The position numbers and the translations under genes were made by a program. The notes beneath the pieces are model-generated. The model worked only from the letters and a program-made list of their open reading frames with translations, searched no databases and was not told where the DNA came from. DNA of 12,616 nucleotides from Acidobacteriota bacterium (GTDB lineage: Bacteria > Acidobacteriota > Thermoanaerobaculia > Multivoradales > UBA5704). Positions 3,591 to 6,342 of this stretch are shown here, one piece after another; within the stretch, counting starts at the first letter, position 1; the number at the start of each line of letters is the position of its first letter. The stretch is from NCBI GenBank assembly GCA_040005235.1, contig JBDTZG010000106.1:1-12616 (forward strand), given 5' to 3'.

Positions 3591-3656
3591 TCGCAACTGG
3601 TTACTTCCCTCTGGTTTTCCTCAGGCTGTGGAAAAACTGCGGATATCGCTTATTCT
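3591..3656 (+). promoter_or_regulatory. dnaA upstream regulatory region: three DnaA-box-like sites, an IHF-like core and a candidate -10
   Basis: TTTTCCTCA (3615-3623, +), TGTGGAAAA (3627-3635, equals TTTTCCACA on minus, a perfect TTWTNCACA), TGCGGATAT (3638-3646, equals ATATCCGCA on minus). CAActggTTA at 3594-3603 and TATTCT at 3651-3656. Confidence 0.65.
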
Positions 3657-3679: not shown

Positions 3680-4999
3680 ATGGCACCGCAATCCCTCTGG
3701 TCTCAACTGCAACGGAAGCTCCAACAAGAGCTGACGGCGGAAGAGTACGAAACCTGGTTCCGGCCGCTGCGGGCGCGGTCCGACGGAAACCGGCGACTGG
3801 TGCTTTTCGTCCCAAACGATCGTTTTCTTTCGACTCTCGAAGAGAGCTATCGTCCGGCTCTCGATCGAGCTATCGCAGATCTGAATCCGCCGGGACTTGA
3901 GATCGTCTTGCTCCTCGACGAGGGTGATTCCGCCGCTTCGGCTCAGGCCCTCGCCCCGACGAGCGCGGTACCTTTGGCGCCCTCGCTCGCGTTCAACCCG
4001 AAGTACCTTTTCGAAAACTTCGTGGTCGGAAACTCGAACCAGTTCGCCCATGCCGCGGCGCGAGCGGTCGCCGACCGTCCCTCTTCCAGCTACAACCCTC
4101 TATTTCTCTACGGCGGGGTCGGCCTCGGCAAAACCCATCTGCTCCACGCCATCGGCCATCAGATCCTCGCCCTGCACCCTCATCTGCGGGTCCTCTATCT
4201 GCCCGCGGAGCAGTTCGTCAACGAGCTTATCAACTCGATCCGGTTCGACCGGATGCCCGCGTTCCGTGAGCGCTATCGGACGATCGACGCCCTGCTGATC
4301 GACGACGTCCAGTTCATCGCCAACAAGGAACGGACCCAGGAAGAGTTTTTTCACACCTTCAACACTCTCTACACCAGCCAGAAGCAGATCATCCTCTCGT
4401 CCGACTCGTCGCCCAAGGACATTCCCACTCTCGAAGAACGCCTGCGCAGCCGCTTCCAGTGGGGTCTGATCGCAGACATTCAACCCCCGGATCTGGAAAC
4501 CAAGGTCGCCATCCTGCGCAAGAAGGCTGATTTTGAAGGGGCCGACCTCCCTAATGAGGTCGCCGAGTTCGTCGCTCAACAGGTAAAGTCGAACATCCGC
4601 GAGTTGGAAGGCATGTTGAACCGCGTCATCGCCTTCTCGTCTCTGACCGGCAAGCCGCTCTCCTTAGAGCTCGCGCGCGAAACCCTTCGCGATATTTTGC
4701 CCCACGAAGGGCGAAAGCCCACCGCCGCCGAGATCACCAAGAGCGTCGCCCGCCACTACGGGCTCAAGGTCGTGGAGATCAAGAGCAAGAACAACTCCAA
4801 GCAGATTTCTTTTCCTCGCCAGGTAGCCATGTACCTGTGCAAGCGACTGACTGATCTCTCTTACCCAGATATAGGGAAGCAATTCAACGATAAACACCAC
4901 TCGACAGTCATGTATTCGGTCGACAAGATTCAGCAGCTACGCCAGGACGATGGAGACTTCGACCGCGTACTCCATAACCTGGAGCGCGGCCTTTCTTGA
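3680..4999 (+). CDS. dnaA: Chromosomal replication initiator protein DnaA, 439 aa
   Basis: Domain I (LWSQL..EEYETWFRPL), FNPKYLFENFVVGNSNQFA, Walker A YNPLFLYGGVGLGKTHL, Walker B LLIDDVQF, TQEEFFHTFN, RLRSRFQWGL, NIRELEG, and domain IV PRQVAMYL..HHSTV. Start reassigned from 3533 to the ATG at 3680 (MAPQSLW). Confidence 0.98.
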   Translation: MAPQSLWSQLQRKLQQELTAEEYETWFRPLRARSDGNRRLVLFVPNDRFLSTLEESYRPALDRAIADLNPPGLEIVLLLDEGDSAASAQALAPTSAVPLAPSLAFNPKYLFENFVVGNSNQFAHAAARAVADRPSSSYNPLFLYGGVGLGKTHLLHAIGHQILALHPHLRVLYLPAEQFVNELINSIRFDRMPAFRERYRTIDALLIDDVQFIANKERTQEEFFHTFNTLYTSQKQIILSSDSSPKDIPTLEERLRSRFQWGLIADIQPPDLETKVAILRKKADFEGADLPNEVAEFVAQQVKSNIRELEGMLNRVIAFSSLTGKPLSLELARETLRDILPHEGRKPTAAEITKSVARHYGLKVVEIKSKNNSKQISFPRQVAMYLCKRLTDLSYPDIGKQFNDKHHSTVMYSVDKIQQLRQDDGDFDRVLHNLERGLS

Positions 5000-5020
5000 C
5001 TTTGGGAGGCCCCCTCGCCG

Positions 5021-5123
5021 CTGCGAATCTTCTGCGGATAATTCTGCGGATCCGCGGCGGAGGATTTAGGGCTCCCCCTCTTCATCAGCAGGCATGCACA
5101 GCCTATCCACAGGCCGCCCGCAG
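5021..5123. repeat. Two oppositely oriented arrays of DnaA-box-like repeats with 10-12 bp period
   Basis: Minus-oriented: TGCGAATCT 5022-5030, TGCGGATAA 5033-5041, TGCGGATCC 5045-5053. Plus-oriented: TCATCAGCA 5082-5090, GCATGCACA 5092-5100, CTATCCACA 5103-5111, CCGCCCGCA 5114-5122. Several are weak matches to TTWTNCACA. Confidence 0.65.
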
Positions 5124-5137
5124 GTTTTGTCTATAAC

Positions 5138-5162
5138 CAACCCCCTCGATTACAAGCACTTA
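5138..5162. promoter_or_regulatory. IHF-like binding site within oriC
   Basis: TTACAAGCACTTA (5150-5162) matches WATCAANNNNTTR with 2 mismatches and lies between the box arrays and the unwinding module. Confidence 0.5.
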
Positions 5163-5168
5163 GGCCTC

Positions 5169-5208
5169 AAATCCGCAGATCCGCAGCGCCTTCTACCTAC
5201 GGCTACTG
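5169..5208 (+). other. Basal unwinding module: tandem overlapping DnaA boxes, GC spacer, DnaA-trios
   Basis: AAATCCGCA (5169-5177) and AGATCCGCA (5177-5185) overlap by 1 nt, followed by GCGC, then CTT CTA C CTA CGG CTA CTG (bottom strand 3'-GAA GAT G GAT GCC GAT GAC-5'). This is the same layout as the Bacillus subtilis box6/box7, GC-rich spacer, trio element. Confidence 0.75.
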
Positions 5209-5247
5209 TGAGATATGATTCCTGGTACCTGGTAGGAGAAGAAGAGC

Positions 5248-6342
5248 ATGGAGATTCGTGTTTCGCGCAGTGAATTTTTGGCCGAGCTGTCACCGATGCT
5301 CGGAATCGCCGAGAAGAAGACGACGATTCCGGTGCTCTCGCACCTGCTTCTCCAGGCTCGGGGAGCGAGGTTGTCGTTGGCCGCGACGGATCTCGACGTA
5401 TCGCTCACCAGCTGGTGCGACGCCGAGGTCGTGGAGGCCGGAGGGATTGCGGTCCAAGCGCGCAAATTCACCGAGATCATCGGTTCTCTAACCGGCGACG
5501 AGGTAAGTCTCGTTCTCGACGAGCCGCGAGTCCTCTCGGTTCGAGCAGGCCGCTCGCGGTTCAAGATTCACGGTCTCTCCCCTGATGATTTTCCGACTCT
5601 GCCTACGGTAGAGCCGACGCGAAAGATGGAGCTGCCGTTCGCCGACCTCAAGAGGATGATCTCCAAGGTGTTCTTCGCGGTCTCCGCCGAGGAGTCGCGG
5701 TTTCAGCTGAATGGCGCGCTGATTAAGCTCAAGGGCGACAGCATCGAAATGGTTGCGACGGACGGCCATCGTCTCGCCTTGGTAGAGCAGAAGGTCGAGG
5801 GTGCGGGGGAGGATTCCGTATTGGCACCCCGGAAGGCTCTGCAAGAGATCCAGCGCTTCGAGGGCGACGGCAAGATCGTTTTCGCCCGAGGCGAGCATCA
5901 TTTATCGTTTGGCTTGAACCGCCGAGAGCTCATCTGCCGAATCCTCGAAGGGACGTTTCCGGACTACGAGAGGGTTATTGCGCGAGACAACGACAAGCAG
6001 GCGATATTCGACCGGCGGGCTCTGGGCGATGCGGTCAAAAGGGTGGCGTTGATGACCGGGGATCGCGCCCGGGCGGTACGGCTCGACATGCAGGAAGGGC
6101 AGGTTACCGTATCGGCGGTGAACCAGGACCTCGGCGAAGCGGTCGAAGAGCTAGCTTGCGAGTACAGCGGACCCGAGATTCGTGTCGGGATCAACCCGGA
6201 TTACATGGCCCAGTTTCTCGCCGCGGTGGATACCGAGAAGGTGCGGTTCGACCTCAAGGACGAGAATACTCAGTGCGTCGGCTATCCCGTCGATGGAACC
6301 GATGCCCGGTACCTCTGCGTGATCATGCCGATGAGGATCTGA
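5248..6342 (+). CDS. dnaN: DNA polymerase III beta subunit (sliding clamp), 364 aa
   Basis: KKTTIPVLSHLLL, AATDLDV, DDFPTLP, SRFQLNGAL, VATDGHRLA, LEGTFPDYERVI and C-terminal VIMPMRI. Shine-Dalgarno AGGAG at 5234-5238. Expected synteny with dnaA. Confidence 0.98.
   Translation: MEIRVSRSEFLAELSPMLGIAEKKTTIPVLSHLLLQARGARLSLAATDLDVSLTSWCDAEVVEAGGIAVQARKFTEIIGSLTGDEVSLVLDEPRVLSVRAGRSRFKIHGLSPDDFPTLPTVEPTRKMELPFADLKRMISKVFFAVSAEESRFQLNGALIKLKGDSIEMVATDGHRLALVEQKVEGAGEDSVLAPRKALQEIQRFEGDGKIVFARGEHHLSFGLNRRELICRILEGTFPDYERVIARDNDKQAIFDRRALGDAVKRVALMTGDRARAVRLDMQEGQVTVSAVNQDLGEAVEELACEYSGPEIRVGINPDYMAQFLAAVDTEKVRFDLKDENTQCVGYPVDGTDARYLCVIMPMRI

Follow-up and report, generated by a model that had tools for sequence, protein, structure and literature searches.

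Recognition of the DnaA box is regarded as almost universal: TTATCCACA is the starting point of origin finders, and the contact residues of Escherichia coli DnaA are used as an argument for conserved specificity. In E. coli, R399 is the minor-groove arginine, the alanine mutant of which is binding-defective, and a relaxed E. coli consensus permits A or G at position 7 of the box. The present analysis deals with DnaA and its putative boxes in an Acidobacteriota bacterium. It started from a stretch of 12,616 nucleotides (assembly GCA_040005235.1, contig JBDTZG010000106.1), which was analysed in its entirety and is called the window. The window contains a predicted chromosomal origin region, with clusters of predicted DnaA boxes on both sides of dnaA. 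The comparison with relatives indicates, with a probability of roughly two thirds, that the box of the clade is nn(T/A)TCC(A/G)CAG, that A and G are about equally frequent at position 7, followed by T and never C, that the reading of this position was broadened, and that the sites with G at position 7 (G7) are predicted genuine boxes and not products of drift.

In the excerpts of the literature considered here, six residues of E. coli DnaA are listed as making base-specific contacts, i.e. R399, P423, D433, H434, T435 and H439 (PMC2533591), and such contacts are assigned to positions 432–435 and 438–439 of the recognition helix (PMC5043019). Residue-to-base contacts are used below only at the level of detail of the excerpts of PMC5742627, PMC5043019 and PMC2533591. 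Lineage-specific boxes are described for the Epsilonproteobacteria, which have TTCAC-core boxes with a fixed T5 and kept R399 and A7 (Jaworski 2016, PMC5043019), and a TTTTCCACA box was reported for Cyanobacteria (Ori-Finder 2022, PMC10225481). The high-affinity boxes in Table 1 of PMC4285127 have CACA at positions 6–9 throughout, and the sole position-7 variant mentioned in the excerpt of this paper is a very weak W box of Caulobacter. The layout of boxes plus DnaA-trios was defined in Bacillus subtilis and is widely predicted (PMC8287927; PMC10721633); the rule given for the basal unwinding system is at least three 3′-NAN-5′ trios that are in phase, lie no more than 16 bp from a box and precede AT-rich DNA (PMC8287927). 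Among the hits listed, literature searches retrieved no prior description of the DnaA boxes of this phylum or of G7 boxes, with the supplementary phylum lists of PMC8287927 lying outside the search.

The last 90 residues of the window DnaA could be aligned without gaps to E. coli domain IV (1J1V_A, E 5.6e-18). E. coli residue numbers were obtained with an offset of 373, with which the six listed base-specific residues land on the matching E. coli letters. The window DnaA has N399, P423, H433, H434, S435 and Y439, and in addition N398, K432, M438 and S440; of the six contact residues P423 and H434 alone are retained. It was thus verified against 1J1V that, as the initial annotation had stated, domain IV aligns ungapped and carries R399N, D433H, T435S, H439Y and A440S. 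To place these residues in the phylum (phylum, class and order are the groups of the genome search), 151 genomes were sampled, and DnaA was detected in 147 of them. A set of 170 dnaA loci was assembled from 30 order-level loci and 140 further ones, two of which were later dropped due to short flanks or a truncated gene. N399 was present in 151 of the 170 loci, H433 in 162, K432 in 159 and S440 in 122. N399 together with H433 is therefore a signature of the phylum, while positions 435 (S 95, T 71), 438 (L 58, M 57, I 51) and 439 (H 106, Y 57) vary within it.

The 30 order-level loci stem from the genus, the family and the order, and all of them have the motifs KS[KR]xN.. and KHHSTV.Y. The commonest 8-mers were determined without a prior motif in the 350 bp flanking dnaA on either side. 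The top 8-mers were TCCACAGG and TTTCCACA (26 loci each), TTCCACAG (25 loci), TCCGCAGC (23 loci) and TTCCGCAG (21 loci), the last one being a G7 variant. Each locus had 5–14 TCC[AG]CA sites, 249 in total, 129 with A7 and 120 with G7, and 186 of the 249 were followed by G. In the phylum set the consensus box was TTTTCCACAG, with mostly T at position 3, and the use of G7 depended on the group when loci were sorted by residues 399/433/435/439. The 38 N/H/S/Y loci, to which the window belongs, had 167 TCCACA and 140 TCCGCA sites in their flanks, compared to 128 and 49 in 40 N/H/S/H loci, 207 and 29 in 51 N/H/T/H loci, and 56 and 4 in 12 N/H/T/Y loci. As A7 is as frequent as G7 in the clade, these numbers indicate a broadened reading and not a new code.

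As an additional approach, all single substitutions of TTCCACAG were counted in the dnaA flanks and in a background from the same loci. TTCCGCAG (G7) was found 40 times in the flanks and once in the background of the S435/Y439 loci (N399/H433), an enrichment of 125x, while the enrichment was 6x in the S435/H439 loci (13 versus 9) and 1.7x in the T435 loci (4 versus 10). In the S435/Y439 loci, TTCCTCAG (T7) was also enriched (12 versus 3, 16x), and TTCCCCAG (C7) was not (2 versus 3). A pattern of A, G and some T without C at position 7 is not the one expected from GC drift, and the difference in G7 between the groups persisted in GC-matched bins.

A tree of DnaA domains I–III, calculated with FastTree and with the trait columns left out, united 36 sampled loci in a clade of roughly class level that contains the window (support 80 for the whole clade, 99 and 100 for two parts of it). 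It comprises 35 of the 38 N/H/S/Y loci and L031. S435 is present in 100% of the clade and in 44% of the rest of the phylum, M438 in 86% and 19%, Y439 in 97% and 16%, and Y422 in 78% and 12%; N430 was found in 94% and D or N431 in 100% of the clade, where the rest of the phylum has G in 86% and 80%, respectively. Further markers of the clade in domain IV are I394 and L420. Taken together, the G7 box variant and the co-occurring helix changes S435, M438 and Y439 are real at the clade level.

The genus allowed a comparison of orthologous boxes (8 loci, 85–99% DnaA identity). The gaps beside dnaA have diverged, and the boxes form conserved islands in them. At five orthologous boxes G, A and sometimes T replace one another at position 7, while positions 4–6 and 8–10 hold. 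Downstream of the tandem boxes at 5169–5186 lies a nearly invariant element, CGCCTTCTACCTACGGCTACTGTGAGATATGATT, in the eight loci, and a module of tandem boxes, DnaA-trio-like repeats and AT-rich DNA is probably located directly upstream of dnaN, as judged from this conservation. In other genera the locus of the tandem pair consists of a box, a short GC spacer, CTACTACTA(CGG)CTA and then TGCTATATT, e.g. TCCGCAG..CTACTACTACGGCTA followed by TGCTATATT. In T435 lineages the equivalent spot has TTTTCCACAnnTCCACAG GCC CTACTACTACTACTA and then AT-rich DNA (e.g. TCCACAG GCC CTACTACTACTACTA), and the tandem position is filled by TCCACAnnTCCACAG. The trio-proximal box had G7 in 11, A7 in 3 and T7 in 1 of the 15 clade loci found with one pattern. 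With an automatic rule, the S435/Y439 loci yielded G in 9 and A in 7 cases, with 22 not detected, and the T435 loci A in 19, G in 1, T in 3 and C in 1. The presence of G7 in the trio-proximal box indicates that G7 is not confined to peripheral sites and also occurs at the predicted functional core of the origin. As a separate observation, trio-proximal boxes with an 8-bp period (TCCACAnnTCCACAG), in which the 9-mers overlap by one base, occur phylum-wide (e.g. L100, L107, L081).

In the window itself, ATCCGCAG occurs five times (3637-, 5032-, 5044-, 5171+, 5179+), always in the two gaps flanking dnaA. In shuffled controls its mean number was 0.74, and five copies were reached in 0 of 200 shuffles. 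The genome has 465 copies, and at least three within 300 bp are present at the dnaA–dnaN gap only (6.22 Mb scanned). String searches confirmed these five exact copies and the lack of a perfect TTATCCACA in the window, both of which the initial annotation had noted. Its 12 box-like sites, their 5′ dinucleotides, G7 in 8 of 12 and the G after all 12 were likewise reproduced by a window scan; they correspond to seven exact TCCRCAG sites and five of seven one-mismatch sites. In contrast to the canonical invariant C6-A7-C8-A9, 8 of the 12 sites have G7, and TTWTNCACA is fitted by a single site (3627, TTTTCCACA). Seven of the eight exact TCCRCAG sites in the window lie inside the 331 bp of the two gaps, and 14 sites with at most one mismatch in these 331 bp compare to 65 in the remaining 12.3 kb. 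Box-like sites thus cluster beside dnaA to a statistically unusual extent, and the cluster is kept in relatives, as is typical of an oriC-type cluster.

The initial annotation had proposed a co-evolved code, in which the loss of R399 relaxes the 5′ TT of the box and the altered helix (D433H, T435S, H439Y, A440S) switches its core to CCGCA, resulting in the motif WTCCRCAG. All these substitutions are real, WTCCRCAG does describe the window sites, and positions 1–3 are more relaxed in the window clade (T at 34, 50 and 54%) than elsewhere, the clade being the sole relaxed group. The proposal is nevertheless quite unlikely. A7 stays as frequent as G7 in the clade, so that the motif stood and the switch did not. 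N399 and H433 are found phylum-wide alongside canonical TCCACA, including 63 T435 loci with TTTTCCACAG and without G7 enrichment, and hence they cannot be what specifies CCGCA. The 5′ end was compared with outgroups, which were retrieved in one contig scan of at least 120 stretches; among the matches listed, to which all outgroup values in this text refer, 80 had flanks and 75 a usable dnaA. R399 was present in 96% of these 75 loci, while D433, Y439 and G430 are at 100% by design of the scan. The R399 outgroups have T in 61% at position 1 and in 69% at position 2, with A or T at position 3. The NHSH, NHTH and NHTY groups have T in 53–65% at position 1 and in 64–85% at position 2, and the N/H/T/Y loci in 65, 85 and 81% at positions 1–3. 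N399 lineages are thus as T-rich at the 5′ end as R399 outgroups, and R399 lineages inside the phylum have no tighter 5′ end (46 sites), so that the loss of the arginine does not explain the relaxed TT. S440 is common throughout, and the trailing G, which had been included in the special motif, is found in DnaA boxes generally in the present data set, with 50–77% in all groups and 56% in the outgroups. The role of the helix could be retained in part: the G7 variant co-occurs with S435, M438 and Y439, and D433H, with H433 being phylum-wide, drops out. Relatives with the same residues and canonical boxes had been named as evidence against the code; this applies to the N399/H433 relatives, which mostly have near-canonical TTTTCCACAG, and it does not apply to the S435/Y439 clade, which is enriched in G7, with GC drift being disfavoured.

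It could also be that the specificity is unchanged, and that G7 marks deliberately weak, perhaps ATP-DnaA-dependent sites among strong A7 sites, in analogy to low-affinity sites of E. coli and the W boxes (TCCCCA) of Caulobacter. A7 and G7 coexist in every clade locus, and weak variants at position 7 are described in the excerpt on Caulobacter (PMC4285127). This explanation is unlikely, as the trio-proximal box has G7 in 11 of 15 clade loci and its consensus in T435 relatives is A7 (19 of 24), the window has five copies of the identical 8-mer, orthologous sites swap freely between A and G, and G7 does not serve as a weak variant in T435 lineages that share the origin layout (4 versus 10). It is very improbable that the G7 sites arose from old A7 boxes by mutational drift towards a high GC content, or that they are sites of another protein. 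The genome has 65.9% GC, and TCCGCAG is 3.3x commoner in it than TCCACAG (1180 versus 360 genome-wide). However, the dnaA flanks have merely 57% GC, C7 is not enriched while G7 is, the spacers have diverged around boxes that are kept as islands, and relatives with T435 and a high GC content lack G7. The same is true for high-GC outgroups: 48 T435 outgroup loci among the matches listed (Actinomycetota, Cyanobacteria, Gammaproteobacteria and others), which served as a high-GC control, had 222 A7 and 21 G7 sites in the flanks and 51 and 36 in the gene, and G7 made up 9% in the 23 of them with a flank GC of at least 0.55. The G7 sites are identical to the A7 boxes in all other positions, including G10, and the two forms replace each other at a given site, so that no second reader protein needs to be assumed. 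A position 7 that was broadened to A, G and sometimes T, and not a switched code, remains the best reading.

Several observations weigh against this broadened reading, or against its link to particular residues. A7 boxes are retained in all groups, as would likewise be expected from a design with strong and weak sites. Among the T435 loci, L121 has a trio-proximal G7, and 10 of the 51 N399/H433/T435/H439 loci have at least two TCCGCA sites in their flanks. In-phase trios are clear in many relatives, but the run in the window (5193–5208, CTA C CTA CGG CTA CTG) is off by one base. L031 belongs to the window clade, has H439 and six G7 sites, and thus Y439 is not required. The 27 outgroup loci with S435 and Y439 among the matches listed showed no G7 enrichment (flanks A 26, G 10, C 13, T 10; coding sequences A 24, G 24), in a thin sample with few boxes near dnaA at all; S435 and Y439 are thus not sufficient in a protein with D433 and R399. 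Epsilonproteobacterial DnaA mostly has S435, yet A7 is kept, according to the excerpt of PMC5043019, so that S435 alone is not enough. In independent pairs, S or T435 was not significantly associated with the use of G7 (8 pairs, median p ~0.6; G7 use changed in parallel in 1.7 pairs, in the opposite direction in 0.2 and not at all in 6.1), and nothing was found for Y or H439. The link between residue and base is not significant after phylogenetic correction, as the signal is essentially that of a single clade. Of the test suggested by the initial annotation, a de novo flank motif combined with covariation, the first half recovered the G7 8-mer and the second half did not reach significance. 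In clusters of 70% identity with a flank GC of at least 0.45, S435/H439 had a mean of 1.49 G7 sites (13 clusters) and T435 of 0.49 (19 clusters; one-sided p 0.012). Clusters of 70 and 80% were used, as lineages were lumped together too strongly by single linkage at 60% identity. The 70% clusters are still related, and therefore this association is suggestive and not established. S435 looks necessary but not sufficient for G7.

The DnaA of the clade has probably become unable to discriminate at base pair 7. This is likely to be due to T435S together with L438M, H439Y and G430N, in or before the recognition helix, on the phylum-wide N399/H433 background. The loss of the Thr435 methyl group and the neighbouring changes could have removed a contact that prefers A:T at position 7. 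R399N and D433H are conserved alternatives with which near-canonical TTTTCCACAG is apparently still read, and they are probably the cause neither of G7 nor of the 5′ relaxation or the trailing G. The wider proposal, that the DnaA of the phylum with N for R399 and H for D433 still reads TTTTCCACAG, that one clade is blind to A versus G at position 7, and that initiator and origin form a pair of altered specificity, is tentative and somewhat less probable than its negation.

The features of the window are compiled in Table 1. The window is one whole contig (C16) of a genome of 6.22 Mb in 140 contigs. The gene order is mutY-like (on the minus strand), dnaA, dnaN, recF, gyrB and gyrA. The window DnaA contains PF11638 (DnaA_N), PF00308 (Bac_DnaA) and PF08299 (Bac_DnaA_C), all above the curated cut-offs, and its top match in the PDB is B. 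subtilis DnaA (8BTG, E 3.2e-131). A single DnaA match was found in the genome, and it lies in the dnaA-dnaN-recF-gyrB-gyrA neighbourhood, as assigned with Pfam.

Table 1. Features of the predicted origin region; coordinates refer to the window, and box names denote predicted sites.
Feature	Position	Strand	Basis or remark
Box-like site TTTTCCTCAG (T7)	3615..3624	+	Head-to-head with the next box; kept in genus alignment
DnaA box TTTTCCACAG upstream of dnaA	3626..3635	-	One-mismatch and TCCRCAG scans; CTGTGGAAAA in 5 of the 7 members of the genus for which the region upstream of dnaA was aligned, GTGTGGAAAA in L007, degenerate in L006
DnaA box ATATCCGCAG (G7)	3637..3646	-	Orthologue A7 in two genus members
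dnaA, chromosomal replication initiator	3680..4999	+	439 amino acids (P0001)
Basic-loop codons SKNNSK (E. coli 396–401 SKRRSR)	4784..4801	+	N399 codon 4793–4795; 1J1V alignment
Recognition-helix start KHHSTVMYS (E. coli 432–440 RDHTTVLHA)	4892..4918	+	1J1V alignment
Box-like site AGATTCGCAG (T5, G7)	5021..5030	-	Orthologous position 7 is G, A or T in genus
DnaA box TTATCCGCAG (G7)	5032..5041	-	G7 in 8 of 8 genus members
DnaA box GGATCCGCAG (G7)	5044..5053	-	Orthologues A7 (L006), T7 (L004)
Two degenerate box-like sites TCATCAGCAG, GCATGCACAG	5082..5101	+	One mismatch each to TCCRCAG; partial conservation in genus; weakest of the set
DnaA box CTATCCACAG (A7)	5103..5112	+	L007 orthologue G7
Box-like site CCGCCCGCAG (C4, G7)	5114..5123	+	One mismatch to TCCRCAG; CCCGCAG in 5 of 8 genus members, others CCCACAG, CCCTCAG, divergent (L007)
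Tandem boxes AAATCCGCAG and AGATCCGCAG, 8-bp period	5169..5186	+	Adjoin unwinding element; kept in 8 of 8 genus members, one A7 orthologue
Conserved spacer, DnaA-trio-like repeats and AT-rich GAGATATGATT	5187..5221	+	Nearly invariant in genus; probable unwinding module
dnaN (beta clamp), followed by recF, gyrB, gyrA	5248..6342 (dnaN)	+	Pfam

Several further observations were made. Upstream of dnaA, the head-to-head boxes TTTTCCTCAG and GCTGTGGAAAA (3615–3635) form an inverted repeat, TTTTCC...GGAAAA, which is conserved in the genus and might act in autoregulation or form a hairpin. Elsewhere in the genome, a cluster of ATCC[GA]CA (G000:C45:51923-52186, four sites in 260 bp) was dismissed as a chance occurrence, as it lies inside a coding region, uppS-like by eye. 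A family-level clade with T435/M438 (L063, L131, L139, L141, L143, L147, L150) has 0–1 TCCACA beside dnaA, and either its origin is elsewhere or its box differs. Two loci from the class of the window (L035, L038) have K399, the helix KHHTTALHA and zero TCC[AG]CA beside dnaA. A deep lineage (L066, L159, L160, L163, L164, L167, L168) has R399, M432, H433, S435 and N439 (MHHSTVMNA), and its boxes are mostly A7 (26 A, 5 G).

Additional copies of dnaA were also encountered. One complete genome carries two full-length genes (G147:C1:3512958-3514265 and G147:C1:39121-40431; L083, L105), both about 50% identical to that of the window and with N399/H433/T435/H439. In a genome of the same family as the window, a second full-length dnaA (G021:C71:37222-38496, 59% identical) lies on the same contig as the main copy, and another genome of this family (G022) has extra DnaA-like fragments with TGA stops on several contigs. 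A metagenome-assembled genome of a Terriglobales bacterium (G188; L178, L292, L293) has two DnaA homologues with 40–42% identity to that of the window, one of which has R399-type and D433 residues.

The results have a practical and a conceptual side. Only three window sites are within one mismatch of TTATCCACA (3627, 5033, 5103), and TCCRCAG is a practical fix for origin prediction here. Two of six "essential" contacts appear to be replaceable across a phylum with the box little changed, and degeneracy of one position of the box core appears to be possible throughout a large clade, including the box that would nucleate unwinding; both points are worth testing. Nature provides a set of variants on the N399/H433 background, i.e. 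T435/S435, H439/Y439 and G430/N430, for binding and structural work. If the pair of altered specificity were true, it could be an orthogonal replication module and a test bed for the reading of base pair 7.

The G7 origin belongs to a well-known system, of which it represents a natural variation that extends across the lineage, and it does not amount to an entirely new recognition code: the family, the architecture and the frame of the box are known, and the variant is set apart by the degenerate core position in a large clade as well as by the phylum-wide replacement of two contact residues. With E. coli domain IV on TTATCCACA (1J1V) the window DnaA shares the domain, a helix-turn-helix with a basic loop and without gaps, and the boxes share the core T4-C5-C6-x-C8-A9 followed by G. 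In contrast, four of the six contacts differ (N399, H433, S435, Y439), the window clade has either A or G as base 7, and T predominates at position 3 in the phylum. The TTTTCCACA box of Cyanobacteria resembles the phylum-wide consensus TTTTCCACAG, but here the reader is a DnaA without R399 and D433, and the window clade adds G7. The Epsilonproteobacteria also have a lineage-specific change of one box position together with substitutions at 435, 438 and 439, whereas the present case combines a broadened position 7 with the loss of R399. The W boxes (TCCCCA) of Caulobacter deviate at position 7 as well, but in the excerpt of PMC4285127 they are very weak, auxiliary C7 sites, while G7 equals A7 in number here and is trio-proximal. 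The predicted origin layout in relatives is like that of B. subtilis DnaA-boxes #6 and #7 with DnaA-trios, i.e. tandem boxes, a short GC spacer, CTA repeats (3′-GAT-5′ on the other strand) and AT-rich DNA beside dnaA and dnaN; unlike in the B. subtilis unwinding system, the boxes here may carry G7, and the trio phase is interrupted in the genus of the window.

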